From Takakia lepidozioides (taxonomy: Eukaryota; Plantae; Bryophyta), in contig CM060733.1 of the NCBI GenBank assembly GCA_030704615.1, positions 6,572,001-6,636,000 on the forward strand: 64,000 nucleotides of DNA, read 5' to 3'. Below, piece by piece: positions 4,831-63,475 of this stretch. The translations under genes were made by a program, and so were the position numbers. Position 1 is the stretch's first letter. Each line of letters opens with the position of its first letter. The notes beneath the pieces were generated by a model. That model ran no database searches. It was given only the letters and a program-made list of their open reading frames with translations, and was not told the origin of the DNA.

Positions 4831-5133
4831 CATCTAGTGTGTCCCACCAAGTAGGAATCATGCATTTGAATTATTACTACCAGAGTGGTATGTAAGTGAT
4901 TGGGGCTATATCTGGAGGAGTACAACCACTCTTGCCTACTGTCACAGTCTTACATATACCACTAACAGAGTGGTGTGTAAGTGATTCATACATTCCCATA
5001 CAATTCTCCTACAATTCCCATACATTTCAAGTGAATCTGCAAATCCAAATACTCTTGAAGATTCACCATTCAAAAAACAGAATAGAATCCAAGACAATAA
5101 GTGCTGGAACAGAGTCAACAAAATTCAGAATTC

Positions 5134-6762
5134 AGAATTCAACATGCATTCAGGGCTGAGTCTGATGAGAGGGAAAAACAGGTTGAAATAGGTCGAAGAA
5201 TAAGGTGCCATCACCACCACCCAACGAGCTCACTTTCATTCAGGGCCAAGTCTGATTAGAGGGAAAAACAGGCTGAAATAGGTCAAAGAAGAACGTGCCA
5301 TCACCTCCACCCAATGAGCTAACTTTCAGAATTCAACATGCATGATTTCAGGGCCGAGACTCTGATGAGAGGGCAAAGAATGCTTACAATAGGTTGAAGA
5401 AGAAGGTGCCCTCATGACCACCACCCAACGAGCTAACTTCAGAATTCAACATGCAATTAGGGCCGAGTCTGATTAGAGGGAAAAACAGGCTGAAATAGGT
5501 CGAAGAAGAAGGTACCCTCACCACCACCCAACTAGCTAACTTTCAAAATTCAACATGCATTCAAGGCCGAGAGTCTGATGAGAGGGCAAAACATGCTACA
5601 ACATGTTGACGAAGAAGGTGCCATCACCACCACCTAACGAGCTAACTTTCAGAATTCAACATGCAATCAGGGCCGAGTCTGATAAGAGGGAAAAACAGGC
5701 TAAGGTGCCCTCACCACCACCCAACTAGCTAACTTTCAGAATTCAACATGCATTCATGGCCAAGAGTCTGATGAGAGGGCAAAACATGCTACAATAGGTT
5801 GAAGAAGAAGGTGCCCTCACCACCACCCAATGAGCTAACTTTCAGAATTCAACATGCATTCACGGCCGAGTTTGATTAGAGGGAAAAACAGACTGAAATA
5901 GGTTGAAGAAGAAGGTGCACTCACCACCACCCAACGAGCTAATTTTCACAATTCAACATGCAATTAGGGCCAAGTCTGATGAGAGGGAAAAACACGTTGA
6001 GATGGGTCGAAAAAAAAGGTGCCCTCACCACCACCCAACGAGCTAACTTTCAGATTTCAACATGCATTCAGGGCCGAGTCTGATGAGAGGGTAAAACAGG
6101 TTGAAATAGGTCGAAGAAGAAGGTGCATTCACCACCACCAAACGAGCTAACTTTCAAAATTCAACATGCATTCAGGGCCGAGTCTGATGAGAGGGAAAAA
6201 CACGTTGAAATAGGTCGACTTCAAAAGAAGGCACCCTCACCACCACCCAATGAGATAACTTTTAGAATTCAACATGCAATCAGGGCCGAGTCTGATGAGA
6301 GGGAAAAACAGGCTGAAATAGGTCGAACAAGAAGACGCCATCACCTCCACCCAACAAGTTAACTTTCAGAATTCAACATGCATTCAGGGCCGAATTGATG
6401 AGAGGGCAAAACAGGCTGAAATAGGTCGAAGAAGAAGGCGCCCTCACCACCACCCAACGAGCTAACTTTCAGAATCCAACAAATTTAGGGCCGAGTCTGA
6501 TGAGAGGGCAAAATAGGCTGAAATAGGTCGAAGAAGAAGGTGCCCTCACCACCACCCAACGAGCTAACTTTCAGATATCAACATGAAAATTTAGGGCCGA
6601 GTCTGATGAGAGGGCAAAACAAGCTGAAATATATAGGTCAAAGAAGAAGATGCTCTCACCACCACCCAACGAGCTAACTTTCCGAATTCAACTTGCACTC
6701 AAGGCCGATTCTGATAAGAGGGAAAACAGGCTGAAATAGGTCGAAGAAGAAGGTGCCCTCAC
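5134..6762. repeat. ~104-bp tandem array, ~16 copies, inside the CACTA
   Basis: Unit agaattcaacatgcattcagggccgagtctgatgagagggaaaaacaggctgaaataggtcgaagaagaaggtgccctcaccaccacccaacgagctaactttc; one orphan copy near 7120-7190. Confidence 0.95.
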
Positions 6763-7904
6763 ATTGTCCTTGACCTTGTGTCATGACCCATGGAGGATTT
6801 GACTGAGAGTACCTCTTGTGTGTGCTACTTGTGTTTGGAGCCAGATAATGTCGGATTGGTCTGTGAGAACCACCACGGTGCAGCTGAGTAGGCAGAGATT
6901 GAAACACGGCCTCTAAGACCAAGCTGACTCTCACAAGAACCTTGTAAACATCACAAAGAATACCAAATCATGGTCCCAGTAGCCAAAAGCCGACATGTGC
7001 AGGATGGACAAACTTCTTCATATCGTACATTAAGAAAAAACTACACCTTGTGATTGCGGTTGTCCCACCATCGTGAAGGATCTTTAAAAACCTCATGCCA
7101 GCTTTGCTCCGTGCTGTAAATTCAGGGCTGAGTTTGATAAGAGCGCAAAAAAGGCTGAATAGGTCAAAGAAGTAGGTGCCCTCACCACATTGTCCTCGAC
7201 TCTCCCAAGAACCTTGTAAACATCACGAAGAATACCAAATCGTGGTATTAACAGGAGCCAAGAGCCGACATTTGCAGGATGGATAAACTTCTTCACATCG
7301 TGCTAAGAAAAAACTACCTATACCTTGCGACTGTGGTTGTCCACCCAAGCTATGCATATCCTGCAGATCATCCCACGCAAACACATCAAAACGATCAAGT
7401 CCCATAACTTAGCTTAACGCAATCCCACAATCCTAAATCCATTTTGAAATATTTGGATGAATGTATCGTAGATGGATGGATTTTGGGTTTTCCATCTATC
7501 TATCCATCCGTTCATTTGGTTTTAACTTTATTGGTTCATCCATCCATTCTAATTTCATCCATTCATCTTTTAGTGAGTTTCTACAACTAACTACAGTCCA
7601 TAATGTAGTTATTTTAAATGGTCAAAAAAATCGTCAAACTGACATAATGAAAAACCAAGGGTGTGTTGTAGTGTACAATGGTCTGGACACTTGTCTGTTT
7701 TTCAAATCTGTCACAGGTGCATAAACCACTTAAAGTTTTTCATGTATCACCATAGAAGTGATATCAATCACTATTGTATAGGCAACCACTCATTAGCGAC
7801 CACTGGAATAGTGGATCCAATTACTGCAGTGTCTTTCACCACCCACTCTCCACCACTTTCAAAGTGGTACAAATCAATGAGAAGTGCATAATAGAAATCC
7901 AGTC

Positions 7905-7976
7905 ATGTCACCATTAGAGTACGTTGGGGTCATCAAAGAGATCTTGAAACTGGATTATGGATGAGTGCATCCCATT
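7905..7976 (+). pseudogene. CACTA transposase DUF4216-like fragment, part upstream of the Gypsy insertion
   Basis: Reads PLEYVGVIKEILKLDYG*VHPI and continues after 19678 as (I)VFHSVWVRANL. Confidence 0.75.
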
Positions 7977-8333
7977 TGTCAAGTTAAATAAGCACAGTGT
8001 GAAACTAGCTAGAATAAAGCTAGTTATTTGTATTTAACACTTGGATTTAGGTCAAGTGTTAAATCAGGTGTCAAGTTTAGTTTGACACCTGACCCGTCTT
8101 ATCTTCACGAGAGCGGCAGTCGCGCAGCTCATCTCTCTCGAGTTGAGCCTGCGCGACCGAGCTCCTTCATGCGTTTAGATCTGAGTGTGCTTATGATGGG
8201 AGTGTAGGTTGTTGTGGGGTGGAGTCCCCATAGCTTGGGGTGCCCCTGGCTTGACTTCTATTTTTAAAGAGTGATAGCAATGGATTTCATATTTCTTGTG
8301 TTGAGAGTGTGTGTCTTTTTAGCTTGTTTATCA
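7977..8333 (+). repeat. 5' LTR segment A (357 bp)
   Basis: Matches 19236..19592 with 3 transitions; starts TG, ends CA. Confidence 0.95.
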
Positions 8334-8350
8334 CTCGAGAGAGATGAGCT
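8333..8350 (+). promoter_or_regulatory. Putative self-priming primer-binding site
   Basis: actcgagagagatgagct directly at the LTR end is the exact reverse complement of LTR 8126..8143; no TGG-type tRNA PBS is seen. Confidence 0.75.
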
Positions 8351-8599
8351 CTTACCTGTGAGTGCAAGGTAGGAGTTGAGGGTTAGCACTTGTATGACTA
8401 CCTGTGCAAAAGTAGTGCTTAGTTTGAGAAGCTTTAAAAAAAAAAAAAAAAAAAAAAACATGCAGGTTTCGATCATCTCTGGTTTCTATGTATATAGATG
8501 GTCCATGGAGGCAGGCTGCATGTCAAGCAGGGGCAAAGAATTGGTGTCTTTCCACTGGTAAGGATAGCGTTGGTTCTGGCATAAGGCCGCAGGGGCAGG

Positions 8600-8863
8600 A
8601 CGGAGCTATACTGCGGGGAAGCAGCCTTCGTTCTGGTCAGTAAGGGCATGAACAGCTCACAGTGGGTGCGGCAAGCATTGGCGAAGCCAGAGCTGGCCAG
8701 ACAAGTTCTTGATGTGAAACTGCTGAAGACCATAGGTATTGACAAGCAGCTGCTGCAGCTGATGGATGTGGCCATGCTTTGCACACACGAGGTGCCTGAT
8801 AGATGCCCCTCCATGCAAGACGTGCTAAAGGTGCTCATTGGAATCCAGCACCAGCAGCGGTAA
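8600..8863 (+). pseudogene. Captured receptor-like kinase C-terminal fragment (subdomains X-XI)
   Basis: QWVRQAL...QVLDVKL...LLQLMDVAMLCTHEVPDRCPSMQDVLKVL resembles the RLK/Pelle 'vA.lCt...P..RPsM.dV.k.L' motif. Confidence 0.7.
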
Positions 8864-10484
8864 AGTGGGTTTTCGTTTCTTCCTCTGCTCGAGCTCCTTC
8901 GAGCAAAGAAAAAGCAGGGTATGTGATTCAGGAAAACAGATCTCTCTCTATCGAATGAAATTCCCGTGGAGGGGGTGAGCACGACAGGCTGCTGAGGGTC
9001 GGATGAGAGAGACGGCGATCATTAGCATCAAGCTGGTTGGACATGGTGGAGTGGACACAAGTAGTGGAAGTACTTCACGGACATGGTTTCCTGCTCCACA
9101 ACAGATGTCCATGAAAGGAAACACAAAAAGCCAGAGAGGGATTGCGCACCACGTGCACTTCTACTCCAGGTTTGCAAAAACAAGTGTTCCTGACTGTGCA
9201 CCACATTCGTTGACAGTAAGTGTGATGTTCAATCGGACCTCGTCCTTTTGGAGGTGTGCAAGATAATATAGTTAATTTCCCACATCGTGATAGTCCAACT
9301 GAAGGTGTTCAAGAGCTGTTGAAGAAGGGGGACGAAGTTCACGTTGACTGAAATGCGCAAAGTGTTCTAGCTCTAGGGAAGGTTTTGACCAGACGATTTG
9401 AGAAAGAAGATTTGCAGCTGGGACATACCCGTATGTGCCTGGTTGGGTGATCTGCACAAATCAGGGCCATTGCAAGTGAGTCCGGAAGATAGGGCTTCCA
9501 ATGCCCCAGATGCAGACCTCTTTCTTTGTGGTGCAGACCAGTTTGTTGCAACTCCGCTGTAGCGTGGAGGATGGTAGAGAGGTTGCCATCTGCGAATCGT
9601 TGCGTGCAAAATGCTGATGTGAGGATGAGAGGCGGACTGAAGAGATAAGTAGGAAATCGCAGCTTCACTGCTTCCCTGGAGGTGCTTGTTCTAAGCCGAG
9701 TGCTGTGGTGTACTAGACTTCCAGGCATTCATTGGACATCCTGTGTGAGTGGAACCAGCTTGAACCTCGTGAGCCTGAAGGGGAGCGAGGGTGATTTCTG
9801 GTTTTGAGTGTTGTGTACGACAAAGAGTAGGTAGCCGTGAGGACTGAGCAGAACCAGGAGCTGGTAGGAGCTGACGGGCATCTCTGCTGCATGGCTTTGG
9901 AGATTGACGAGCATGCAAGCTGCTCATGTGCAACCCTTTGATCAGGTCTTTGATCGGCCGAATCGGCCAACACCCCGCACCACCTCCTTGTTCTTGCTTG
10001 CTTGCGCAGGCTTGGCCATCGTTGCCATCGTCTGCGTCCGCCTTGCCTCTCTCCCCTGAGCATACTGAATGCGTGATTAATGTGAGGCCATTTCTTTCAG
10101 GACCAATTGGCCTTGCAGTTTATGAGTCCAAGGAATTCTTAGGGAACCAGGGAACAGGGAACCAAGACAAGTATTGAAAATAAAATAAAATAAATTCCTT
10201 GTATTTGTTTTGTCTTATTAAATTTTTTTTTAAAAAAAAGGTGTTATGTTTAAAGAGCCTGGTTGGTCATATCTTTGTCAAATGAGCTCCGTTTGACTCA
10301 GTTTTTGAGGGGATAGCTGCAGAAAGGGGAAATCTACCTATCTAGTTCTGGTTTTTGTTTTTTGGACTCTGCTAAAAATCTATGGAATTTTTAGAGTGTG
10401 AGTGTGCCATGAAAGATCCACAATTCTGTTTCTAGAACATGTTCTGGTCTATTTGAGAGACAAATATGTGGATGTCCTCCTTGT

Positions 10485-11234
10485 ATGGCTGGGGGAAATG
10501 AGGACGTAATTGAAGGGCAGGTCTCTTCTCTTAGCCTGTGCACACAAGGGGACAAGATTTATGTTTCCCAAGGAACTCAGACTGATTTGAGTGGAGAACA
10601 GTTGGACGAGTTCATTGCATACTGGGAGTCAGGCATTAGCAGTAGACAACAGACTGCTGTAGTTGGCGTTGAGGGCCTCAATATCGCTTTGGACAGTCAG
10701 AACTCTGTTGGATCCAGCAGTTCTGCAGCTGTAAGTGAAATACCAAAGTGGGTGAAAGCTAGGCTTAGAACACAGCCAAAGACAGCCCCGGGGACCAAGG
10801 TGTTCAGCCACAAGGCTGTGGTGTACTGGAGCAGAGGAGCAGGAGCTACACAAGTTTGTGCAATCAGACAGCGTTGCAGCTGGACACGCTCTGCACAAGG
10901 CAACCACGAGCGGGGGTTCATTAGCGAGGACAAGTTTGTTCTGTTTGAAGGAGATGCAGTCATTCGCAATGAGGACACCCGCAACCGTCTCAAAGCTTTC
11001 GAGTTGAGAGACTATCAGACCCTGCCTTTGTTTTCTTTAGTGTTCAGTGAGCGGGAGATAGCAGAGTGTTGCTTTGTCTCTACCTGGCAGAAAGAGGAGG
11101 AGGGTTGGTTAGAGCGAGCTACTGTAGCTTGGGACAAGGTTAGTGGCAGGTTTCTGGACATAGATATACCTCCTACACCTTACCATCATGCAGAGCGAGG
11201 CACTTTGAGAGAAGTCTGGAAGTTGATAGCATAG
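10485..11234 (+). CDS. Orphan 249-aa ORF upstream of gag in the Gypsy element
   Basis: ATG-initiated, uninterrupted, protein-like composition, same strand as gag-pol; no motif recognised. Confidence 0.5.
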   Translation: MAGGNEDVIEGQVSSLSLCTQGDKIYVSQGTQTDLSGEQLDEFIAYWESGISSRQQTAVVGVEGLNIALDSQNSVGSSSSAAVSEIPKWVKARLRTQPKTAPGTKVFSHKAVVYWSRGAGATQVCAIRQRCSWTRSAQGNHERGFISEDKFVLFEGDAVIRNEDTRNRLKAFELRDYQTLPLFSLVFSEREIAECCFVSTWQKEEEGWLERATVAWDKVSGRFLDIDIPPTPYHHAERGTLREVWKLIA

Positions 11235-11753
11235 ATCAAGATTAGATCTTGCTTGGGCGGGCTTCTATTCTTCCCCTCCATCTCTGTACTATTTTCATTA
11301 CCTTGTACTCGTAGTTGCCAAAGCCTCTCTTGGTGGAGGCCAGTCAGTCCGGGGTTTTGGGCTGGGATATTCTGCAGGATCAGCATTGCAGCTGGATTTT
11401 GGTGTGGGGGTGTTGATGTTTTGATTTCTTGTGTTTGGATCCCCCCCAACACCTGCATGCTTGACTGTGCGCCATGTTGGTTTTGTCTGGGCGCTTGCTT
11501 TCATAGGGATTAGGCCGGATTTGATCACCGGTCAATCCTAGAGTATACTATCGGTGGTGAGGCTGGAGTGATGACCAGCAAGACCACCAGTGTTTCTTCT
11601 ATGGTGAGGCTGGGTTGATGACCAGCCAACCATAGGAGTTCTTGCGGTGGATGCAGGTGCAGGTGCCTTGAGCCATTGGGATATGACCCTTAGACTGCAA
11701 CAGGTGCCCACCCGTGTCACTATTAGATTAGTACTAGAGCCTTATAGTGTCAC

Positions 11754-13960
11754 GTGGAGGAGGTGCACATTGTGAGTGTCATTACGGAGTTACCCAAGGG
11801 TTTTGAGGGGAGTACGGCTACAGGCAGTAACAGTGAGAGTGGGTTCACAAGACGAGGTATTCGGTTCAGACCACCTTCACCGCCACCCTCAACTATTGTA
11901 GAGTCAGACACAGACTCGGAGGCTTCATCAACAGGTGTGCAGTTTCATTCGCCATTGTTGTGGGACGACATAGAGGAGATGTATGGAGCTACCAAGGGGC
12001 CTCGTAGGTACTCTGGAGCTGTGGGCACAATCGAGTTGGATGACTTTATCCAGGAGTTCGACAGCTGGTGTGATTTGTAGCAGATGCGCAATCCACAGCT
12101 ATTCACCCCATTCATGGCGTGGAAGGGACTATTCCAGCATTTGGAAGGCCCGCCTATGGACGATTACCACGAGTTCAGGCGAGGACATGAAGCAGAGATT
12201 GAGGAGTGGAGGATGTATTGGTCACCTGACTACGTCTCCATTACTCGAGGCACGATGCGACCAGTAGCTGCATCAGTACCAATATCTCCCACTGCCAGCA
12301 CTAGTAGTGGAACAAGTAGTGCCGGTACTTCTGCAGGTCGTACCAGTTCAAAAGGTGCTACTACTCCTCCTGCCACGACTACAACACATGTGCCTAGATT
12401 CAACCCGGTGGTGGAGTTCTTCCAGGAGTTGCGGAGAAACTACCAAGGTGTACGGACAGAGAAGCTGCGAAGTTTGCAAGACTTCCAGCGCAAACCCAAT
12501 GAAAGCCTGCGAGAGGCGTACACTCGTATGAGGCGCTTGATAAGTGTGACCCAAGGGGTTACTGAAGCTTAGGCAATCCAGTTTTGGTATGGAATTCTGG
12601 ACAAGGAGCTCAAGAGAAGGGTGCGAGATGCAACCCTGTTACAAGCAGCCCAACCCACATTAGCAGATGTGTTTCTGCTGGCTGAGCGGATTGAGCTCAA
12701 CATGGTGGAGGAGCGAATCGTCACCATTGGATTTGGCAAGGACATGCTTGCACGAGGCGCAGCTGCCAGCCCATAGGCACAAGGTACTGCCCAGCAGCGT
12801 GGTCAGGGGGGCAAGGTTTCCCAACCCAAGTTCCATGGAGTTTACAGGGGACCTCAGGTGCAGAGGCCCGTGGCATCTTTTGCAGGCCAACAACAACCAG
12901 GGGTGGTATGTTGGACATGTGGAGGACCCCATGTCAAGAAAGATTGCCCAGAGAATGGCAGAAGGCCGACACAAGCACAACCTGCACAGTTGCAGTGTGG
13001 GCATTGTGGCAAGTATGGACATGAAGATGCCCAGTGTTATGACTTGCACCCTGAGTTGCGCCCAGGCCAGTTCCAAGGGAACAATGGTGGTCGGGGGCGA
13101 GGTGGACCAGCCCAGAGAGGACGAGGTGGTCGGGCACGAGGTGCAGGCCAAGGGCAAGCTCAACATGGCCAAGGACGCGGAGGTCAGGGTGTTGACCAAG
13201 GCATGGCCAACCGGCTTCAGCAGCTAGAGCAGAGGCTCGCTGCCATGGCTACAGCTCAGGCGGTACCGGCTCCCAGGCGGGATGGTCCACCTCTTGTTCC
13301 TGAGGGAGGAGATATAGGAGGCATGGGATTCATGTGCGAAGCAGCACTACCACTAGAGCAGGTGGAGTCTGCTGCAGCCGTGACTCGAGGAGCAGCACGA
13401 GTTCCTGAGCCACGAGGTGCAGAGGTGGAGTTGGATCCACAACGTGGGGAGGCAAGCCGTCAAGCAAGGCTGCCTTGGTCATTCACCTTGGCGGAGACAG
13501 TGTCAACGCCATCCATGGCACCTAGTTCTCGCCCGACTGTTACCGAGGCGGAGGTTTCTATGCCATTGGGGAGAGCTACACGTGCAACACTGACACCTGC
13601 TGCCAAGGCTAGTGCAGCCGGTGTGTTGTTGGGGGCAGCCACCTCTGTGTGTCAAGCCCCACTGTTCTCGGCAACCATGATTGCGACGCCGGGGGTAAGG
13701 CCAGTTGCAGTGTTCAGACTAGCAGCAACACTCTGTGAGAGTGGGGAGGTCACTTCATCTTCTGCGGAGTTACTGGAAGGTATAGTGGCAAAGGGATCCT
13801 CAGATTTGAGGGTCAAGACTGCCACGGCTGCGCCATGGCAAGCTGCAGCTGCCAGGTTGACGAAGCTGTCAGCTAGGCCAGCCTTTGAGCGCGCCATGGT
13901 GACACCTGGAGTTGTCTTGTTAGACAACCAGGATGGCATTTTCTCATTGAGTGGACGGCA
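11754..13960 (+). pseudogene. Gypsy gag (stops at 12078 and 12570, frameshifts)
   Basis: LDDFIQEFDSWC, FQRKPNESLREAYTRM, zinc knuckles CWTCGGPHVKKDC and CGHCGKYGHEDAQC, RGG-rich tract. Confidence 0.88.
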
Positions 13961-14400
13961 GGCAAGAAGTACCGGCCACTTTGGGTCTTGTTGGACTCGG
14001 GGGCTCAGCCACTGATGTTGGGCAGAGCTGCTATCACAGGTTTGGGCCTCATGGAGGCGGATATGGAGCCTTGTCCTTTCCAGATACAGACATCTCTGGG
14101 AGGATCAGAGCAAGCTCGGGGCATGACACGACATCAGTTGGCCATTAGACTGCAGCCGGATCATCCTAGAGATGGCTCAGTGATGCGAGCCAAGGCCATT
14201 GTGACAGACGCGGTCTCTTACGATGTCCTCGTTGGTGGGGCAGTGTTATACCCCATGGGCTTCACCCTGGACTTTTGGGAGGAATCAGCATCCTACAGGC
14301 CTGGATGGCAATCAGGCGATGGTCATCGTGCACAGCTCCCTGTGACATTCATTGGGGGTATTGCGGCTGCCCAGTGGGGCAAAATGCCAACACTAGCCGC
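13960..14400 (+). pseudogene. Retropepsin aspartic protease domain
   Basis: (V)LLDSGAQPLMLG catalytic motif; YDVLVGG. Confidence 0.88.
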
Positions 14401-14523
14401 CTTTACAGCTGCAGTTAGTTGGCCTGGAGAGTTGCTGGAAGGCAATGCCCATGCAGAGGATGTCACCAAGACCACCTCAATTGTGGCCACTGGACACCAC
14501 ACCTCTTGTGTGGCAGTGCCCGG

Positions 14524-15500
14524 ATGAAGGCATATGCCTTCTGGACTTGTTTGGCGGGATCAGCACTGGCTTGGCTGCAGTGCTGCAGGCACGTGTACGA
14601 GTTTGACGTTACTTGTATGTGGAGAGGGATGAGACTACACGACGCGTCTCACTGCGCCATGTTGCTCAGATGGTGCAGCAGTACCCTGAGTTGTTGCCGG
14701 TGTCTGCAGTTCGTGGATATCAGCAGGCCTTGCTAGCAGACATTGCGTTGCTGGGGGCGCAGGATTTGGAGCGGGTTGGCTCCATTGATCTGGTAGTGGC
14801 AGGTTGGCCCTGCCAAGGGCATTCATCAGCCGGACATGGCAATGGATTGCAAGACTCAAGGACGGGTCTGTTTTGGGAGATGGTGCGGATTTTGCGCCAC
14901 TTGCAGCTTCATCAAGCTGTATCTCCAGCATACATCTTGGAGAATGTGCCACTGATGGGTGATTCTCGGGCCAGGGTGATGGCCAGTGTGCATCAAGTCC
15001 GGTCGTGGCTTGGGTCAGCAGTGCTGCTGGATGCAGCTGCAGTGGGGTCACGGGCTCATCGTCCACGGCTTTGGTGGACTAACTTGATGCCACCCGCACT
15101 GCTCAAGCGTGCATTTGATGGGGTGCAGCGGCCAACACACCTCACATTGGATAACATTTTGGACACGGGGAGGCAGTCTCAACGTGTGAGACACAATGAC
15201 CGTTCGCCTTTGGCAGTGGTCAACAGGGTGGGTCAACCACGAACAGCATTATCTACACTGCTCAGCTTCCCAGGATCCCATGCTTTTTGGGATGGTGGAC
15301 CTGGCCTCCTGTGGGATGCTCAATTGCAGCAGTTAGTGGAGCCTAATGCCGACGAGCGAGAGCGGGCTATGGGGTTTTCCACTGGGACCACGGCGGTGCC
15401 TTCTCTTTCTGAGGCATCACGGCGTCAGGTGTTGGGGCAAGCAATGGATCTCAATTGCTTGACCTGGATTATCAGCTTGGCTATGGCTGAGCAACGTAGA
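14524..15500 (+). pseudogene. C5 DNA cytosine methyltransferase domain within pol (one in-frame TGA at 14604)
   Basis: Motif I LLDLFGGISTG (~14538, same frame as ORF 14613), II YVERD, III ADI, IV IDLVVAGWPCQG, VI YILENVP, VIII AHRPRLWW, IX ERERAMGF, X RRQVLGQAM. Confidence 0.92.
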
Positions 15501-15844
15501 GTGCGGAGTGCACTCCCCTTCATGGTCTCTCTGCCTACCGAGACGGTACAGGCAGCGAGTGGGGGCGAGCCGGTGAGGACCACGGGGTGTAGGCATCCAT
15601 GGCACACGTGGGAGGTGCTCGAGGTTCAGAGGGAGTTGGCAGCCAAGGCAGCTGTGATGGATGAGGTTGGGGATTCTTCTCGGGATGAGGAGGTTCTCAA
15701 TGATGAGATGATGGGGCAGGATGAGGCCTTGTCATTGACTGAGCAGGAAGGGAGTACTGCTCAAGAGGTTGCAGCATAGCAACCACGGGACGCGTCCTCT
15801 ACCTCTAAGCCCACTGGACTTAAGGTTGCAGTTACGGAGGACAA

Positions 15845-16860
15845 TTGGGAGCTGACATTGGACCCATTGTCACCGGAGGAGAGAGACGACGTATACGGCG
15901 GTTCCTGAGGGCTTACAGGAATTGCTTTGCCTTCAGTTTGAAGGACTTGGGAGCACTGAAGGGTCAAGAGATCCGTATTGAGTTGGCCACTGACACGCCA
16001 ATCTTTCGGAGACCCTATAGATACAGTGACATGGAGAGGTCTTTGATTCAGATGAGGACTCAAACGAGACAGGTTTGGTGGAGCTCTCTGGTGGAGAGTA
16101 TGCTTCAGCCACAGTGATGCCAGCCAAGAAGGATGTCTATGGCAATTGGACTGAGAGACGTATGTGCGGTGATTACCGGCCTGTAAATCGTCAGACCAAG
16201 TCCGATAGGTATGCCATGCCGACACCAGAGGAGATCTTTGATGCCATTGGGCATTCCAAGGTCTTTAGCACGTTGGATTTACGATCCGGATATCACCAGT
16301 TGCCGATCAAGGAGGCGGATAAGCAAAAGACGGCATTCTGGGGGATCAATGAGCACGGGAATGATTGCCTATACCAGTGGCGGTTCTTACCATTTGGGCT
16401 TAAAAACGCTCCCGCTGAGTTTCAAAGAGTCATGGACAGGATTCTAGCAGGGGTGGAGTTTGCTCGGTGCTACATAGATGACATCATCATCTTTAGTGCT
16501 ACGGTGGAGGAGCATGAGAGACACCTTCAGGGGGTATTTGAGCGCTTGAGGGCGCACGGATTGAAGTTACATCCGGGAAAGTGCAAGTTTTTCCACAACC
16601 AGATTGAGTATCTGGGTCACATATATATCCTGGAGGATTGGGGGTACAGCAGACTAAGGTAGAGTCCATTGCACAGGTTCCACGCCCCACGGATGTGAGC
16701 CGAGTTCGAGCTTTCATGGGGTTAGCAAACTATTACAGACGGTTTGTTAAGGGATTTAGTGCCATTGCAAAGGCTCTAACCAAGCTGACCAAGGTGGACC
16801 AGGAATGGCAGTGGGAAGATGAGCAAGAACAAGCTTTTCAAGAGCTCAAGGCGAGGTTGA
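15845..16860 (+). pseudogene. Gypsy reverse transcriptase (frameshifted)
   Basis: PIFRRPYRYS, RMCGDYRPVN, FSTLDLRSGYHQ, LPFGLKNAPAEFQ, YIDDIIIFS, KCKFF, YLGH, FMGLANYYRRFV. Confidence 0.95.
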
Positions 16861-16879
16861 CCTCGGCGACCTATCAGGG

Positions 16880-18648
16880 GGCGTCCTTTTCAGCTGCATA
16901 CAGATTGGAGCATGCTGGGGCTTGGAGCGGTGCTCACACAGGTGGATGATGAGGGAAGAGAGTTCGTAGTGGCTTATGCTAGCCGCTCGAACAATGCTGC
17001 AGAGTCTAAGTATAGCTCATATGAGGGAGAATGCTTAGTTGCAGTGTGGGCCGTGGCACACTTCAGGTGCTATCTATACGGCAATCTCTTCACCCTTGTC
17101 ACGGATCACCAACCACTCAAGTGGTTGATGGAGTCAGACAAGCTTACGGGGAAGCTTGCACGGTGGGCACTCATCCTTCAAGAGTATGACTTTCAGGTGG
17201 TGCATCGACCGGGTTTGGTCAATCGCAATGCAGATGGGTTGAGTCGCAATCCATGCACGAGCCAGCAGGATGACACTGGAGCTCGGTGGCATGGTGAGAC
17301 GGACGAGGAGATGGTGCCCGGATGGCATGCATCTGCATTTCTGTGTATCTTGGCAGCGGAAGGCCAGGTTGGACCTGCAACAGGGATGACTGTAGATCAA
17401 GTGTCTGAGGACCCTGAGGCCAGCAATGAGCAAGGTGGCGCCAAAGATATACATGAGGATTCAGTTGTGTTGGACTACCTCCGCACTGGAGACACTGCAG
17501 CCACTGTGACTGCCAAGGAGAGGGATCGGATCCTACAACGAGCCAAGAGGTTCAAGTGGGAGGGGACACACCTGCTCCGAGTGTGGGAGGATGGTCGAGT
17601 GAGGATTGTGCCTCACCCAACACAGCGAGCACGGTTAGTGCGGCATGCCCATGAGGAGTTGGGGCATTTTGGGGTGCGACGCACTCATAGTCTACTGCAG
17701 GGGCAGTATTGGTGGCGTGGTATGCATACAGAGGTGCAACAATTTGTGGCTAGGTGCATGGTGTGTGACAGGGTGCGTGCTTCATTCAACGCCCCTACTC
17801 CACAATTGCACCCTCTTCCGATCATGGGATTGGGCTACAGGTGGAGTCTTGACTTCGCAGGGCCGTTGCCACTGACCATGCGCCACAACAAGTACGTGTT
17901 GGTGATGGTGGAGCACTTCTCCAAGTGGATTGAATTGGTTCCATTGCCTGATAAGGCTAGTGAGGGAGCTGCGTATGCATTCTTGGATTGTGTGCTTAGC
18001 CGATTCGGTGCTCCAGCTGAGGTACTCACGGACCAAGGGAGAGAGTTCTTGGGGGAGTTTCAGGCTTTGTGTGACAAGGCCTTGATAGACCACCGCACCA
18101 CTTCTCGGGATCATCCTGAGGCCGATGGCTTGGCAGAGAGAGTTGTTCAGACAGTAAAGAGGGGTTTGCGCAAGTATGGCTTGCAGAAGGGACACCTAGG
18201 AGATTGGGACCTTCAGTTACCCTGGTTAGCCATGGGCTACAGGTTCAGCAAGCAAGCATCACTTGCCTCCTTCTCACCATACTTTCTTCTCTTTGGCCGT
18301 GAGCCGGATTTGCCTACATCCATTCGCAGAGAAGCTGCTACAGTTCTTAATCTTGACGATCCGGACGTGTGGGCACGTGCATGTGAGCAGCGTGCAGAGT
18401 TGTTCAAGAAAGTCATGCCCATGGCTTTCGAGAACCTTGCCATTGCACAACACCGTGATACGTTGAGGTATGCTACCATACGTGGTGGGGGCTATCGTCC
18501 TGGGGTTCGGAGATTCAACCCTGGTGACTATGTCTATCTGCAGCAGACTGCTCCTACGACCTTGGATGTGACTGCAGGACGTGTTATTTTGAGGGTTCGA
18601 GAGGTCTTGCCCTCAGGCGTCTTGGTCTTGGAGGGTCGGATGGCATAA
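16880..18648 (+). pseudogene. RNase H plus DDE integrase
   Basis: LHTDWS, GLGAVL, VAYASR, TDHQPL, NADGLSR; HHCC (HEELGH...CMVC); catalytic D (SLDFAGP), D (LTDQG), E (GLAERVV). Confidence 0.95.
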
Positions 18649-18746
18649 CTTGGAAGGACCATGTGCGTAATTGTGCGCCATGTCACCTTCCGAATGTCGA
18701 TGGCAGGATTGACCCAAACCTGGCAGTGGTATCTGCAGGTTTGAGG

Positions 18747-18880
18747 TGCATGTTGTGTGGGTCTGCTAAAGGGGCAGCCACCATGCTGGTGTGTGATCGA
18801 TGCTCTAGAGGTGGCATATGGGATGCTTGACTCCACCTCTTGAGATGGTTCCGGATGGGGATTGGTTATGTCCACATTGC
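18747..18880 (+). pseudogene. PHD finger (C4HC3) at the integrase C-terminus
   Basis: CMLCGSAKGAATMLVCDRCSRG[W]HMGCLTPPLEMVPDGDWLCPHC after correcting a 1-nt frameshift near 18811; linked to INT by a frameshift near 18638 (DGITWKDHVRNCAPCHLP). Confidence 0.9.
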
Positions 18881-19138
18881 ATTGGATAATGGGAGTGGAT
18901 ACAACCATGGAAGGCTAACAAGAAATGCAAGGCCAAGCTACTAGGAGACCTTGAACACACAAGATCTTGGCTCAAGTTCACAGATTGCAAGACGGCGACT
19001 AACGATGGGGCTACTCTTGTATCCGGCCTCTTGGTTGATAGAGTTTGAGCACGATAGGGACAGTGATAGAGGACTTAGTACGGCTGTGGCTATTACATCT
19101 TGTAGCTATCTGGAGTTAGAGGGACCTATCCACCAGCT

Positions 19139-19147
19139 AGGGGGCGA
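19139..19147 (+). promoter_or_regulatory. Polypurine tract
   Basis: agggggcga just before the TG of the 3' LTR at 19149. Confidence 0.75.
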
Positions 19148-19148
19148 T

Positions 19149-19592
19149 TGTGGCAGACTACTTTATTGTGCATATATGTGTGGTGTGGTTTGGACAGCGA
19201 TGTAGTTGTGTAGCGATACGTATGCGCACGACAGCTGTCAAGTTAAATAAGCACAGTGTGAAACTAGCTAGAATAAAGCTAGTTATTTGTATTTAACACT
19301 TGGATTTAGGTCAAGTGTTAAATCAGGTGTCAAGTTTAGTTTGACACCTGACCCGTCTTATCTTCACGAGAGCGGCAGTCGCGCAGCTCATCTCTCTCGA
19401 GTTGAGCCTGCGCGACCGAGCTCCTTCATGCGTTTAGATCTGAGTGTGCTTATGATGGGAGTGTAGGTTGTTGTGGGGTGGAGTCCCCATAGCTTGGGGT
19501 GCCCCTGGCTCGACTTCTATTTTTAAAGAGTGATAGCGATGGATTTCATATTTCTTGTGTTGAGAGTGTGTGTCTTTTTAGCTTATTTATCA
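19149..19592 (+). repeat. Complete 3' LTR = B (19149-19233) + gc + A (19236-19592)
   Basis: Starts TG right after the PPT; ends with the same ...ttatca that precedes the PBS in the 5' copy. Confidence 0.85.
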
Positions 19593-19593
19593 T

Positions 19594-19678
19594 TGTGGCA
19601 GACTACTTTATTGTGCATATATGTGTGGTGTGGTTTGGACAGCGATGTAGTTGTGTAGCGATACGTATGCGCACGACA
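19594..19678 (+). repeat. Second copy of LTR segment B (85 bp), forming the element's 3' terminus
   Basis: Identical to 19149..19233; followed by TSD catt. Confidence 0.92.
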
Positions 19679-20117
19679 CATTGTATTTCATTCTGTTTGG
19701 GTGAGGGCCAACCTCGTTGGACAAAATGCTACAATGAAGCGGGATTCTTATGATTTTCTACTTGCGAATTTTGGGAGGATGTTACCCGAAATGAAGTGTC
19801 GTTCATCTTTCCATCTCAAGTTGAATTATGTGTTCTTTTCGGATGAGTTCCCAAGTTCGGAGTGGAAGGTAGTCCTTCAGAAGGATCCAAGAGCAAAAAA
19901 AATTGTGGACGTAGATCAATGGGACATTGGAGAAAATGCAGATTTACCTTATCAGCTTAGCCAATACTGGCCTAGGTCATTAGATGGTGTCATGGCTCTA
20001 AATAAAGAAGAGCTGGCTATACTGGATACCATTCAAGCGGCATTTGTACAATCAACCGCTATTCTAGTTGAGGAAAATGATTCGGAGAGTGAGGACTATG
20101 ATTCAGATTCAGAATAA
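19679..20117 (+). pseudogene. CACTA transposase DUF4216-like C-terminal fragment
   Basis: VWVRANL...KRDSYDFLLANF...VFFSDEFPSSEWKVVLQKDPR, acidic tail. Confidence 0.75.
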
Positions 20118-20581
20118 AGTTTCTTGTTGGAACCATTTGTTCAATAGCATCATCCTATAATGGTCTGGACACTTGTCTGTTTTTCAAAGTCTATCACATG
20201 TGCACAAACTTCATGTATCACCACAAAAGTGATACCAATCACTATTGTGTAGACAACCACTCATGAGTTATTACACGTGGAGTAGCAAGTGGTTTCAACC
20301 ACTTCCCATCACTGAGGTGTCTATAACCACTCACAATGTACCACTGCACCCGTCCACGTGGAATATTATATTTAATAACTCAAATATATTACCAAATTAA
20401 AAATATATATATTACACGTGGACTACTGAGTGGTTCAAACCACTTCCAACCACTGTCTGTGATGCCACCGTGGCATTTCATTGGGATTAACCACTGACAA
20501 GTGGTTACTAGTGGTTTATAGAGTGAGAAAAGACAGTAGTGGTTAAAGGACCAGTGGTTATTCCGCGTTTTTCTTCTAGTG

Positions 20582-22860: not shown

Positions 22861-25800
22861 CTTAGGGAATGAAGCTTGCATTGACACAAGCTAATCTTAG
22901 CCCCTATTGGCACTTGGAATTCAAAAAATTTAAAAAGAAAAAGAAAAAAGAAAAACTGAGCCCTAGCGAACTGCCCTTGTCGTAGATGTTCAGTTTCACT
23001 ACCTATAACCCTAAATATTTTGTTGTCTCTTTCACCCTTACCTTTGTTGGCTGGGTACAAATTTATAACCTTGAGCAATGTAGGTTTCTATCTTTCAAGA
23101 AAATGCATTAAATAGTTCAACAGTCCTTGTATCGCATGCTTCTTTGTCCACAGTCCGTCCATCACGTGCTTCTGTGTCCCGTTTCTAGCACCAATGACAT
23201 GGCTCTAAAGTGCGTCTTCGTGCCGATGCGTACCTGCTTCCATGGTAATAGGACCTCCTCGTCCTGTCCTCGGTTATAGGGCTTGCTTCTCCATCCTCTA
23301 AGCCCTATGCTTGCTTAGTGGGCCAAGCGTGAGCCCAGCTCGCAAGCTCACGAGGCTGGGCTCATGATCTAGCATTCCTCTTTGAAGATAACGCTGGACT
23401 CGTGGGGCACACATGCTCTTGGTCGTGATCGTCTTTTACGCTTTGACACACTATGCATATGGATCAAGCACGGGTTCGCCTGTGTTTTGGTTTACTAAAA
23501 CAAACGATGTTGCGTCATGGCTAGTTGCAATAGGCCGCCGGCGATATTTTTTCAAAGACGGATATTTAAATCTTTGTTTGTGAATTCAATTCAAGGAGTT
23601 TCTAAGGTATCTTAGGCTCCTATTAAAAGTCCAAAAGAGGTCGCTGGGATTTTGTTGTATTAAGGACCTCAAAATGACAAGCCGAAGCCATTATCGAACG
23701 CTGTTGGTGGGGAACTTTTGTGTGTGTATCTAAATGGTGGGGCAAAGACTGTTCGAGAGAAATTTCAGCCCCAAGCGTTGATCTCTCCACACCCTAAAAA
23801 TTTGCTCCACAATAAAAACAACGATTTCACGGGATTTGTGACCCATCTGTTTTTCATGGGTGATGGTTGAATCCAATGGACCTGCAGATTGGTGGGGATT
23901 TCAAGGGTATCCCAAGAAAATTTATGGCAAGTTTGAGGAACTGTGGCTCAATTGCAACCAGGTCCAATATGTGGCTTGATTTTATTGCAAGCGTGTGAGC
24001 TAACGGGTACGGCCCGCGAGGTACAGCCGGGGACCCCCGCTCCGGCAGCCTCGTCGGGAGCTGACGCACCATGTCAAATCATCCCCACCCCCCTCCGACC
24101 CCTCCGCCCGCTGCCCCACGATAGCCCCGCACGAGGCTCCCGAGCCCCCCTGACAACCCCGCGCAAACAACCCCCGCCCGGGACCCCTGACCCCCGCCCC
24201 ACCGCTGGCCGGCGGCGCCCCACAGCACGACCCGATCTCCAACACGTGGCGGCCCCCCCGTTGTGGATCCCCTCACTGGGTTGTTTGATCCCCCTTCCAG
24301 TGCCGGAGTGCTCCCCCATCCCCATCTCCAGCCCCCCCCATGTGGCGATACCTTGAACGGCGATCCCTCCCCCATCCATCCAACCTCAATTGAATGGATG
24401 ACGGCGGATGAAGCCCCATGACGCGCCCATCGCCACGTGGTGCTCGCCGCCCGGCGATCCCCTCCTCCCAATCCACGGCGCGTTCCCCCGAGATGTTTTC
24501 GCCCCCCCGACGCGCACTCTTGATCTCCCTTCCGGACGGGAGTGACCCCAACCCTAATTGTCCCGCCACGTGTGGATCACCCGGACAGTTGTCGATCCCC
24601 TCGCCGCACCATCCGACCTCACAAAAAAGGGATGTTGTGTGTCATCCGCCCCTCATCCCCACCGTCGATCCCTCTTCCAAAATCAATGGATCCCGAACGT
24701 CGTCCCGATCACCCGACACGTCGCCGCAACCCCCCCCCCCCCCCCCCTCCGAACCCCTCCGGGTGATCCCCGTCCAATGCGGGTGATGATCCCCCTGACC
24801 ACCACATCGCACCCGGCAACGTGAGCGTCCCCCACCCCCCCCCCCCCCCCCCCGCCGCCGATCCCCTCTTCCCATCCACGGGGTGCGATCCCTCGACACG
24901 TCGCAGCTCCCCTGACCTGGCTTGATCCCCACACTCAGACCCGCAGTGATCCCCCACCCCTAATCGCCCGCCACATGCGCTCCCCCAAACGTCGATCCCC
25001 TGCTTCATCCATCCAACCTCAAAACAATGGATGTTAGTGGTCATCGGCCCCTCATCCCCCGCCATCCTCCCGTGCAGCGGATGGAAGGCCCCATGGCACG
25101 CCCACCGCGCAGAGGCGCCCACTCACTTCAAGAGAACGGTGCCTAAAAAGGGGAAAGCATGCAGGAGGCAAGCTCTTAGACTCCAAGGGCCAATAGTTGC
25201 TCTGTTGTGATAAAGTCTTGCCTTCACATTTGTGGTTTCCGATGGTCTCTATGTGTTCTTTGTAATGCATGTTGCATGTTTGCATTGTTTGCTCTTTATT
25301 TTGTCAAAATGCTATGCTCTCTTGCTCCGAGTTATTCCCACTCCGCCGACATAGTTCTCATCATTGTTCAGGTTCCATTGTTCTTATGGAATTGAGGACA
25401 AGCGCACGAAGTGATATCTGTCAATAGAACATTCTTTGAAGAGAAGGAACGGTAGGAGAGGGTGTGTGCTGGATGTTCATTGCCTTATACAACAACACAC
25501 AAAGGGCCGAGACGATCGAAGAAAAAGCGTTCAGGGAGAGTCCATCAGAAGGGTTGCCTCTGTTAGTGTAGGATTGGACGATGATACCGGATCCTTCTCT
25601 TGCTTATCATAACATACTACAACAAAAATCATGTTGATGGATGTGACAAGGTCTGCCAATTGCCACATTGCCCCACTTCAAGTAACACCCGTTCGTGCAT
25701 GCACCTCACCTTAGTGAAGAGGTTAAGATTGTGGATAATGAATAGCAATATACGTGTTGGGTGTCGTCGATGCTGAAATCATGGCCCAATAGGAACAAAC

Positions 25801-26699
25801 AACAGGTACACAGGTTATGGAGAGAAGTGGTTGTCGTGATATGTTCTGCTTGAGCATGACATTAGAAACATCATGGACAGAGGCGCATGTGAGACTTCAA
25901 GCGACATAAGGACGATGGGACAGTCTGAGATTTGGAAGGAAGCCCAGCCCCAGAGTGTTTTCTTCTATCAAGAGGACATGCCGATGCCCCTGCTGGGAGG
26001 AAAACGATGTGGCTAGATTGTCTACCTTCAAATTTGCCATTGGCATTTCTCAAAACAGAATTTCAGAAAAAAAAACAATGCTCCAAAGGGGGACAAACGT
26101 ATCGTCTCTTGTGATGGACCTTCGGAACGAATGAACACAAGGTTGTGGAATCGACGACGTGGACTCCTGGGAGATGAGAGCATAACATCTTTCATTGTAA
26201 AGGGTATATCAGTGGGGAACATGGGATCAGTGGAGAGCAGGGCCACAGGGGACCATAGCCTTATCCACTGTGCAGGGAGATCACGATTGGGTCATCACCA
26301 GTGACCTATTAATCCCCCTATCGGGATTCGACACCACGGCTGCCTCAGCCCATTAGGCACTAGACACATAGGCCAAACTTCCATTATGCATACTGCCTGT
26401 ATATGTATGGGACCATTTGGGGACCATGACAGTACTTGTGTGATTCGTAGTGAGGGGTGCCAGGCAGGAGGAAGACAGCTTAGCAAATGCATGCCTTGGG
26501 GGGTTATAGAGAGGAATGAGGAGGGATGGTCTACTTCCAGGGGATCATGGCATAGCCCAAGGGGGGAATCACATTAATACTAAATGAGACGAGAGCGGTT
26601 GCAGGTTCGGGTTCACCTCCTGTGATTTCTTGTCATTAATTGCAGTAAAATGTTTCGCCTATTTTCAAAACAATAGTACTGACATTGCACATTTTCATC

Positions 26700-28250
26700 T
26701 TTGTGTGCAGTATGCCATGTACTCTTATGGTCTTCGACATTGGGACCTGAACGACTCCATGTTGCATACATAAGATCTTCAAGACGAAACAATGCAACGA
26801 TTGTCAAGTTGGATGTTGGCTCTTCGTCAAAAGGCTCCAGGCGATCAGCCGGATTGCGTCCCAACGCATTCATTGTGGACGATGCCGATGCTGAGATTAA
26901 CGCCATTCGGTTTGTTCTCAATCCCCCCCCCTACCAATGAACTTACATTGCCTTGCCTGCTTCTGCATGAGGGGAGCAGGAGAGGGGAACAATCACAATG
27001 CTTCTGCCGGGGATCCGTGTAGAGGGACCAAGAGTGTGTAGGGTTGCATGGGGGATCAGTGAAAGGGGATTCGATTATGGGATCATTGATCAGGGGACCA
27101 GGGGAGAGGTAGCAGGGATCAAGAGCAGCAGATCTCACATCCGACAATGATCGAGGGTCCATGGAATCCAAGGTTGCATGGGGGGATCAGTGAAACGGGG
27201 ATCAAACGGGATCAGTGATCAGGGACTTCGGACACTCGGGGGTACCAGGGGATCAGGACCAAACACATGTTGATCCGACAATGTGATTTTTATCGGCCTT
27301 TCATTGGCCATAGGAGGGCTCGTGTATTCCCCTTTCATTGGCCTGTCATCGGATTCTGCATGAGGGGTTTCAGTCAAAGGGGATCAGGGGATCATGAGCA
27401 GGGAGCACTTATCATAGGTGGTCCTGTTGTGGTGTTGTAGTGGCCTTGCTAATGCGTTTTGTGGATGGAATCAGGCATACGTTTCCCAGGGGTGCCGGTT
27501 TCCTGTGCCTTTGGCATGTTCGAAGGGCCGGGCTGAGGAATGCCATCGAGACGATCAAGGATGCCCAGTTAAGGGCCGATGTCTTGCAAGGTATGGGGAC
27601 ATCATGTATAATAAAGGTATGGTCCCATTGGTGACTCTTCGCAGGCCTGGGGCTGTGTTTAGATTGTAGAGTTTCAAACAAAGTATCCCGCCAGCTAAAC
27701 TGTTCTTCTTGTATATCCACAAATGGTGGATCCCGAAAGTGGACATGTGGGTTGTTGGAGCTTGAAATATCACACATGCTGGATCAGATATGAATGCTGG
27801 AATTCAGGCGTACCATGCGAACTTGAAGAGACGCTTGTCCCAAACAAGACGAAAATGTTTGCACGGCGCGACTGGATTGTTGGTTCTACATCCTAACAGG
27901 TAGCCTCCTCACACATTACCGGTCATTTCGACCTTGAAAGCTGAAGGTTCATACCGCAACTCTAGGATGGAACATGTTCGTGCAAAATGCGGTGTGGATG
28001 GCTGGGCGGATACCGGAATCCAACGTGGTAATTGCCCAGAGCAACACGGGGGATCGTGCGAAGTGAAAAAAAAACATGTCTTCTCCAGGCACTGTATACA
28101 CTATATGCAATCCAGCATCGAGGGGCTTGTGTGACTAGCCCTAACGCCATGGAAAGATGAACCTATGCAAGCACAAGTGAAGGTTGTTCAAGATGTTGCG
28201 GCCACATGTACCAGAGGGTTTAAACTTGTCCGAACTTGTGGACACGAGAT
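26700..28250 (+). pseudogene. Decayed MULE transposase with SWIM finger
   Basis: RPNAFIVDDADAEINAIR, FLCLWHVRRA, WVVGA*NITHAGSDMNAGIQAYHANLKR, CD*P..NLCKH. Confidence 0.8.
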
Positions 28251-30571: not shown

Positions 30572-31410
30572 TCATTTTTTTTCCGTGGGGAATGGAGATA
30601 CAATAGCTACATCCGAGGCATCCGAGGCATGCACATGCGACAGTCTACGCTGCAAATCTGCATCATCCCAATTATCCACTATCCATCCACAAAGAAAATC
30701 CTGCTTTGATACTGCGTACTCACATGTAAACCAATCTGCTGTAAAAGTTGCCCCCCATTTTTTTGTGATTTTGGTCTCCAAGTATTTATGTATGAAAGTC
30801 ATTACGAAGTAGCCACACTCCCAGCCGCTTGGTTGTTGTGGCACCTCAGGTTCCAGCCACTCCCATGCCATTATTTCATTCCAAAGTACTGAGTCCGGTT
30901 CGGCTTTGTGTAGGTATGCTCTAAAAGTGAGAAGACGTGTTTCAAAGGCAAGTTGGCTATGGGATTTGAATGATGTCATGGAATTCAGATGAACAAACTT
31001 GGACTTATCAAAAACCATGAAACTCCAATGGCCCCTGCAGAACGCACATGTGTTTGAGGCCAGACACCACTAATGCTTTCCATTCTCCAAATCAAATCAA
31101 AGTCAGTCAAAGCTGCAAAATAGGAGGATTGAGGGACGTACCCAGAGCATAAGGGGACGAACCATGTCTGAACCTTATCTGGATCCTTCCCTAGGCACTT
31201 CTCAGTTACCCAATCATTTACAAGCCCTTTGGAAATCCTGTGAAGGTCCTTGGATGATGCCTCCAAAGCCGTCCATATCAGTGTGTCCATCACAGCCCAC
31301 CAGCAACGATTACTCTCCTCCACAGATAGCTGCAAAATATTGGAATACAAAAACACACCCCTCCATCCCCCGCTTCCCCATACAATTTTGACAACCGTAG
31401 ATAATCCCAT
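30572..31410 (-). pseudogene. Ulp1-like (peptidase C48) domain of a MULE accessory gene
   Basis: VQTWFVPLC, FVHLNSM, PEVPQQPSGWECGYFVMTF (oxyanion Q and catalytic C); catalytic His not clearly seen. Confidence 0.7.
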
Positions 31411-63380: not shown

Positions 63381-63475
63381 CACACAGCGACCATAATCTC
63401 GTCTACATCGGTGAAGAGACGACACGGACAGTGGAACGTCTTCTCTCTCCTCTCTCTCTATTTTTGAAGGAAGCG

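Follow-up and report, generated by a model that had tools for sequence, protein, structure and literature searches.

A Gypsy retrotransposon of Takakia lepidozioides with a DNMT3-type methyltransferase ahead of a conserved, readthrough-type stop

Why does a retrotransposon carry a cytosine methyltransferase, and at what point in its life cycle would the enzyme act? Ever since the enzyme of an algal Gypsy element gave no activity in yeast, in 2018, what transposon-borne DNA methyltransferases (DNMTs) do has been an open question. The question is raised again by a 64,000-nucleotide stretch of the Takakia lepidozioides genome (GCA_030704615.1, contig CM060733.1, positions 6,572,001 to 6,636,000), termed the window, in whose own numbering all positions are given. 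Positions 7977-19678 hold a decayed Ty3/Gypsy element on the + strand, with the order gag, protease (PR), DNMT3-type C5 methyltransferase, reverse transcriptase (RT), RNase H (RH), integrase (INT) and PHD finger. A sequence-only reading had placed the methyltransferase inside pol, in one continuous PR-DNMT-RT frame, and had paired it with the PHD finger as a writer and reader. For the branch to which the window element belongs neither the place inside pol nor the single frame holds: a conserved TAG-CARYYA splits Gag-PR-DNMT from RT-RH-INT-PHD. The features on which the argument turns are as follows.

14481..15500, + strand: DNMT3-type C5 cytosine methyltransferase with motifs I-X unpermuted and a premature stop at 14604.
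15777..15785, + strand: in-frame TAG followed by CAACCA (CARYYA), the predicted readthrough site that closes the Gag-PR-DNMT frame.
18741..18889, + strand: C4HC3 PHD finger closing the integrase, with a frameshift near 18811 and a stop at 18887, placed by relatives and Pfam.

The enzyme itself is as first described, intronless and lying between protease and RT, with its motifs in order and sharing a frame from 14481 onward: I LFGGISTG (F at 14550), II (E at 14622), III (D at 14739), IV GWPCQ (C at 14811), VI ENV (14940), VIII HRPR (15057), IX (15360) and X (15435). The stop at 14604 is the single one that breaks this frame. Pfam, run on ten open reading frames (ORFs) of the window element, gave a DNA_methylase match on ORF 14607-15776 (E 1.6e-13) and further matches to RVT_1, RT_RNaseH, Integrase_H2C2 and rve. 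Sequence, profile and fold all assign the enzyme to the DNMT3 class, with DRM-type and bacterial enzymes far behind. The best match of the single sequence among solved structures is DNMT3A (E 6e-8); a profile search gave E 4e-23 for DNMT3A, 3e-11 for the best DRM-type chain and 4e-8 for HhaI; and a structure model of the DNMT of a natural intact relative (predicted local distance difference test, pLDDT, 95) retrieved DNMT3A/B first (E 9e-20, template-modelling score, TM, 0.72). Key residues are in place by similarity and fold, the catalytic Cys being kept in 140/149 aligned proteins and the ENV Glu in 171/181, and by these residues the enzyme looks catalytically intact.

Relatives were gathered by searches anchored on the DNMT, in which DNMT-free sisters could not appear. 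A protein search returned 305 homologues of similar length and 73 longer ones; named sources are Marchantia polymorpha, M. paleacea, Calypogeia fissa (74%), Riccia sorocarpa, Sphagnum and Klebsormidium nitens (45%), the closest being liverworts at 72-74%. A wider search gave 272 clusters at 50% identity (E up to 1e-30), and of 155 proteins newly added at that stage 34, one of them from the chlorophyte Scenedesmus, have the order RT-RH-DNMT-INT-PHD. Loci with L numbers below are the best 80 of 292 confirmed metagenome loci, many of them from few samples and some representing the same insertion. Among 81 loci, 57 of the 66 with room for it have a protease upstream of the DNMT, and 55/62 have RT downstream. 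Viral contigs gave a single weak match. Trees of RT and of DNMT (23 elements, midpoint root, no DNMT-free outgroup) agree in separating 17 PR-DNMT-RT elements, including Klebsormidium P0168, from six RT-RH-DNMT elements, with support for the former of 98/96 (RT) and 92/91 (DNMT); the window element falls among copies from Marchantia and those of the Sphagnum-like kind. On these comparisons the Gypsy-DNMT3 elements, described in one alga, extend to land plants. As a separate observation, relatives of the chlorophyte type (P0238, P0211, P0241, P0337, P0172, L074) have the DNMT between RNase H and integrase and keep the PHD; their motif IV often has EC for PC, and in some of them G-patch or Tudor domains are present as well.

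Between lineages the DNMT is under purifying selection (Ka/Ks <0.2, dN/dS ~0.1). The values are 0.134 for L026/L028 (dS 0.27), 0.09 for L047/L062 (dS 1.0) and 0.07-0.10 for the window against six close loci, where dS is near saturation. Two of the three refutations named in the earlier reading, copies without the DNMT and neutral evolution of the domain, were put to the test and did not refute it: the DNMT is common to the family, and dN/dS between lineages is 0.07-0.13. A host DNMT3 captured once and riding along without function would suit the broken window copy, yet with this selection, the 305 + 73 homologues, the 272 clusters and the matching RT and DNMT trees such a history is hardly credible and counts as refuted.

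The stop at 15777 is, judged by comparison of copies, a family feature and not decay. All 33 close loci that cover the homologous site have a stop there (26 TAG, 7 TAA), compared with at most 10/39 for a stop at any single DNMT codon, and other, diverged lineages have one as well. Across relatives the DNMT and RT are in the same frame at the DNA level with the stop between them, and the DNMT-RT linkers of different lineages (501, 540 and 615 nt) differ in length by multiples of three. The hexamer after the stop is CAACCA in the window and L031, CAGTTA in L026 and L028, and CAACTA in L042; all five have TAG-CARYYA, and CARYYA follows 0 of 611 decay stops inside domains (another match, in L021, stands at the wrong place and was left out of that count). 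Among 1079 contig pieces of run X1, no variant of at least 2% falls within 15775-15785, while eight others of 121 positions vary, on both sides. In the unbroken locus L026 there are two in-frame ORFs and no more, 1369 and 1047 amino acids long and split at the stop, and many unbroken database proteins are Gag-PR-DNMT, ending ~55-140 residues past the DNMT. Three further Gag-PR-DNMT proteins (P0179, P0181, P0183) end right at the last DNMT helix, from another stop position or lineage.

UAG-CARYYA is a readthrough signal of plant viruses; in tobacco mosaic virus (TMV) the short product is ~10-fold more abundant (PMC2754532). A two-ORF layout with Gag-PR first occurs in some plant groups of retrotransposons (PMC6317226). 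The window has the TMV-like type I features (UAG then CARYYA, frame kept), and because of this motif and the kept frame the TAG is very probably read through at a low rate. Since the DNMT ends the Gag-protease frame, the enzyme would be made at the level of capsid protein, and the PHD only as part of the rarer readthrough product.

What, then, would an enzyme made in such numbers do? In the explanation that we prefer, the Gag-protease frame ends in the DNMT3-type methyltransferase and a UAG, and the DNMT would be packed at capsid-protein numbers and freed by the protease, a dosage and release that we take over from Ty3/Gypsy biology. Low-rate readthrough of the UAG would give RT, RNase H and a PHD-tipped integrase. 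The DNMT would methylate newly made cDNA in the particle, a substrate suggested by its position, and the PHD would steer the integrase to chromatin with unmethylated H3K4. The probable benefit would be that the new copy carries host-like marks from the moment of its arrival. Action on nascent cDNA, an idea already proposed by de Mendoza 2018 (PMC5890265), is the most likely role of the DNMT; that the methylation happens inside the particle is, on balance, probable, and the explanation as a whole we favour by a slight leaning.

Several observations weigh against this explanation. In the largest close family, the Sphagnum-like one, the hexamer is CAACCC in 30/33, one base off CARYYA. The stop is not universal: a second family, of L041-L076 type, P0198, P0348 and Klebsormidium P0168 run from DNMT to RT uninterrupted, and in such lineages dosage at Gag level may obtain but is not arguable from a stop. 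Yeast expressing the Klebsormidium relative showed no methylation, a result its authors call inconclusive (PMC5890265). Among close decayed copies the dN/dS of the DNMT is 0.35-0.84, as expected after insertion, with 0.6-0.84 for sister copies; RT and integrase decay alike in one sister pair (0.58, 0.59), and RT has 0.19 in another. Finally, CpG observed/expected in the element is 0.51, with 0.37-0.45 in its surroundings; the element is not CpG-poorer and therefore has no trace of extra self-methylation.

The CAACCC of the Sphagnum-like family would fit a TAG that is a true stop, the RT-integrase frame being made by splicing or re-initiation and the DNMT still at Gag level. Against this, the DNMT/RT frame is kept though the linkers vary in length, and the stop is followed by four different hexamers that fit CARYYA or come near it; we regard a true stop as very unlikely. 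The absence of CpG loss above background would in turn suit a domain kept for nucleic-acid binding, or for marking the internal junction cut by the integrase, and not for broad methylation. So would the CG kept at that junction (CACGACA) in three families and L026, and the EC that replaces PC in motif IV of 74/137 distant relatives. Yet residues for S-adenosylmethionine (SAM) binding, the catalytic Cys, ENV and RxR are kept in both groups (the Cys in 136/138 distant relatives), and we judge this alternative distinctly unlikely.

A more substantial rival to methylation in the particle is that the DNMT acts after nuclear entry, on the insertion site, existing copies or host chromatin. A Gag-level product could also work free in the cell, and in the chlorophyte type the DNMT lies directly before the integrase (the 34/155 proteins above) and could travel with the integration complex. 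The combination of a DNMT3 with a reader of unmethylated H3K4 moreover echoes animal DNMT3 with its ADD domain. In the branch of the window element, however, DNMT and PHD are on opposite sides of the stop, with RT, RNase H and integrase between them, and the Klebsormidium methylome looks ordinary despite such elements (PMC5890265). Nuclear action is, in our judgement, unlikely.

The PHD finger, also claimed earlier, is present at 18741-18886, split by the frameshift; both halves match PF00628 (E 0.003 and 2.8e-5), as does an unbroken relative (2.6e-10). A PHD follows the integrase in 32/32 of the 81 loci that have room for it, at the position where chromoviruses carry a chromodomain. Pfam matched neither a chromodomain nor a DAM domain in the element ORFs of the window and L026, whose frame ends in the PHD. 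The best solved matches are the PHD fingers of CHD4, PHF12, PHF21A, KDM5 (PHD1), ATXR5, UHRF1, BAZ2 and AIRE, most of which read unmodified H3 tails, and the element has a Gly at what is presumably the site of the cage Trp in H3K4me3 readers. The ligand and targeting role proposed above follow from this likeness and from the chromodomain-like position.

Of the writer-reader pair, the presence of both domains holds, while the idea of one module is weakened: the stop lies between them, some DNMT relatives (P0348, P0275) lack a PHD, and retrotransposons are reported to carry PHD fingers commonly as accessory domains (PMC6673714, PMC8557442). Writer and reader are, from their placement, likely not one module, and because the PHD lies beyond the stop a mature DNMT linked to it is unlikely.

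How such an element integrates is a further question, raised by its ends.

7973..7976, no strand: left target-site duplication CATT, the same four bases as at 19679-19682.
7977..8333, + strand: repeat A1, 357 bp, starting TGTC, the left element end; differs from A2 at 3/357 positions.
8126..8143, + strand: predicted RNA 5′ end and self-primer, an 18-nt perfect complement of 8333-8350.
8333..8350, + strand: predicted primer-binding site (PBS) directly 3′ of A1, without the TGG start expected of a tRNA-type site.
19138..19146, + strand: G-rich polypurine tract adjoining B1, at the same position in the 12/12 other loci shown.
19147..19233, + strand: repeat B1, 87 bp, ending GACA, identical to B2.
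19230..19239, no strand: palindromic junction GACA-GC-TGTC, the right and left element ends joined by two bases.
19236..19592, + strand: repeat A2.
19592..19678, + strand: repeat B2, with a one-base overlap with A2, ending GACA, the right element end.
19679..19682, no strand: right target-site duplication CATT, matching the left copy.

The element has the TG...CA ends (TGTC left, GACA right) and 4-5 bp target duplication of Ty3/Gypsy, being flanked on both sides by CATT; the exact 4-bp duplication is found in 5/7 A-coding-B-A-B loci, with three of four bases in one locus and none in another. It has the domain order Gag-PR-RT-RH-INT with a DDE integrase, and its best profile match is Ty3 Gag-Pol. 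It does not have two full direct long terminal repeats (LTRs) at its ends, A standing at the left and B-A-B at the right in a DIRS-like A-coding-B-A-B layout. Pfam found no tyrosine recombinase in the ten window-element ORFs or the two ORFs of L026; with a DDE integrase and target duplication present, the element is outside DIRS/Ngaro. It is an atypical Gypsy, like KnitGypsy-Dnmt3 of Klebsormidium nitens, and almost certainly belongs to the Gypsy-DNMT3 lineage.

The few differences between repeat copies in the window (3/357 in A, 0/87 in B) mean that the insertion is young or the repeats homogenised. At the A2/B2 junction the end of A is joined to the start of B, with one or two bases in common, and the B1/A2 palindrome is conserved in three families and L026. 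Self-pairing in the window extends over 18 nt, against 10 nt for the best of 200 shuffles, and pairing of the PBS with the 5′ repeat is longer than the best of 200 shuffles in 8/9 loci; the fold z of -5.1 at the self-pairing comes from a region picked after the match was seen. A TATAAA lies ~30 nt upstream of the predicted RNA 5′ end in four second-family loci, and none was seen in the window. With self-priming of this kind and standard reverse transcription, the true LTR would be B-GC-A.

The repeat anatomy suggests integration from end-joined cDNA: the cDNA ends would be joined and the integrase would cut the internal junction, giving the A-coding-B-A-B layout. The mirror product A-B-A-coding-B was found in 0 of 23 loci with A upstream (some of them duplicates), which counts against the simplest symmetric model of a two-LTR circle, since such a circle predicts the mirror too. 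Alternatively, the layout could arise if the RNA reached into B2 and the junction acted as the template, a scheme that has been put forward for split-repeat elements. Short A-coding-B copies with target duplication occur at five loci. We considered these as products of one-LTR circles and rejected the idea: L052 and L064 are the same insertion site in two assemblies, with the same flanks, the right end being B-A-B in one and B only in the other. Assembly collapse or recombination explains the short form, which is not evidence on integration because one insertion appears in both forms. Put together, the proposal would be a green-plant-wide Gypsy clade with a distinct life cycle, in which self-priming, a capsid-level DNMT3 by way of UAG-CARYYA, cDNA methylation, end-joining and a PHD-guided cut at the internal palindromic junction lead to A-coding-B-A-B; in this full form it is tentative and, we think, rather doubtful.

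The remaining parts of the element are the following.

8351..11747, + strand: long leader, without translated or DNA match to relatives.
11748..13949, + strand: gag, with premature stops at 12078, 12570 and 12774; Retrotrans_gag at E 0.0013, below the cut-off; placed by relatives.
13913..14464, + strand: aspartic protease (LLDSGA) and start of the linker, placed by comparison with relatives, with a ~65-codon deletion at its end.
15854..16623, + strand: reverse transcriptase, YIDD at 16471, frameshifted; Pfam and relatives.
16876..17214, + strand: RNase H; Pfam and relatives.
17608..18636, + strand: DDE integrase (H2C2 zinc domain, core and C-terminal part); Pfam and relatives.

Gag has two zinc-knuckle-like motifs at 12900-13067. 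The protease was placed at 13970-14290 by alignment to relatives (59% match; Asp of LLDSGA at 13994); Pfam did not detect it in the window, and a relative's protease matches Asp_protease_2. The window copy is dead, the gag stops and that at 14604 being joined by several frameshifts, and ~65 codons are absent between protease and DNMT near 14464. Contig depth summed over the element is high, a figure not equal to copy number. The coding part, 11748-19146, has many private changes of G-to-A and C-to-T type as well as frameshifts, though the repeats are 99.3% identical; several of the frameshifts are single-base losses in short homopolymer runs, private to this copy. The cause could be errors in long reads, or the copy may have been damaged before it was mobilised.

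In the leader, the ORF at 10413-11234 has no family match and none in relatives. The part at 8514-10141 may be captured host DNA, because it is far less common to other copies. A 92-codon stretch within the leader (8585-8860, +), ending MLCTHEVPDRCPSMQDVLKVL, has no Pfam match and resembles what we take to be the end of a plant receptor kinase.

Around the element, a repeat with 81% identity lies on both sides (7674-7796 and 20156-20267), which suggests insertion into an older repeat or another mobile element. Elsewhere in the window are a tandem array of ~104-bp units (5131-7185); long GC-rich inverted repeats ~12-13 kb apart around an Ulp1-type protease fragment (30572-31069), together spanning 23969-37548 and possibly a DNA transposon; and an unbroken ORF of 1535 codons (endonuclease and RT) of a long interspersed nuclear element (LINE) at 57449-62056 (+), flanked by identical direct repeats of 249 bp (55809 and 61671). 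Pieces of host genes are a kinesin motor (440-1144, -), DUF7894 (44419-44964, +) and a formyl transferase (62652-63476, -).

Marchantia polymorpha, a model plant for which methylation mutants exist, has many copies of the lineage, which makes self-methylation of cDNA testable in the plant. The conserved stop predicts an enzyme that is a structural-level component of the particle, and from the repeat anatomy the DDE integrase would be expected to act on an unusual substrate. Element ORFs are annotated 'hypothetical' or 'DNA methyltransferase' in liverworts and mosses and could inflate host DNMT counts.

Separate traits of the window element recur in known systems. Its stop shares the UAG-CARYYA context of TMV-type readthrough (PMC2754532), readthrough in the window being predicted. 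Tf1 and Tcn1 likewise prime with the RNA 5′ end, which pairs with the site following the 5′ repeat (PMC7175516, PMC6317226), as predicted here; they have ordinary LTRs, and Tcn1 also a chromodomain, and the window element has neither. A PHD accessory proposed to guide insertion is reported for REM1 of Chlamydomonas and for CR1, as cited in PMC6673714 and PMC8557442, whose passages on them mention no methyltransferase. In the text of a reference survey of plant LTR elements, PHD, methyltransferase and Marchantia do not occur. Our searches of openly available papers listed none that treats the copies in land plants, the stop with its readthrough context, the pairing of DNMT and PHD, or the junction; subscription papers, theses, repeat databases and figures may hold them.

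EpiLTRs, with a DAM adenine methyltransferase, a DNMT4-related enzyme and a chromodomain, are like the window element LTR elements that join a cytosine methyltransferase with a histone reader; their authors set them apart from the streptophyte Gypsy-DNMT3 (bioRxiv 10.64898/2026.05.21.726589). The precedent in algae and dinoflagellates to which the sequence-only reading had pointed is real, in KnitGypsy-Dnmt3 and SymbioDIRS-Dnmt3 (PMC5890265). SymbioDIRS-Dnmt3, from Symbiodinium, also has a DNMT3 in a retroelement with A-coding-B-A-B repeats, and its enzyme methylates CG in yeast (PMC5890265); it is a tyrosine recombinase element, whereas the window has a DDE integrase and 4-bp target duplications.

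The nearest system is KnitGypsy-Dnmt3, described by de Mendoza 2018 as a DNMT3 in a Gypsy Pol with DIRS-like repeats and purifying selection (PMC5890265), and cited again in a 2025 paper (PMC12344493). Both elements have the Gypsy domain set and an intronless, unpermuted DNMT3. K. nitens GAQ92009.1 (P0168) has the PR-DNMT-RT-RH-INT order of the window and the DNMT at 45% identity noted above; it is partial and ends before the place of the PHD. A PHD goes unmentioned in the paper's text and three supplementary files (figures aside), and its text does not describe a junction, polypurine tract and self-priming anatomy such as we give for the window element. The DNMT of KnitGypsy-Dnmt3 is in one uninterrupted Pol ORF with RT; the window branch, in land plants, has instead the conserved readthrough-type stop between the two. 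Shared descent is supported by the RT and DNMT trees, in which the two fall in the same group, and because the conserved in-frame stop splits DNMT from RT the window element is a variant and not KnitGypsy-Dnmt3 itself.

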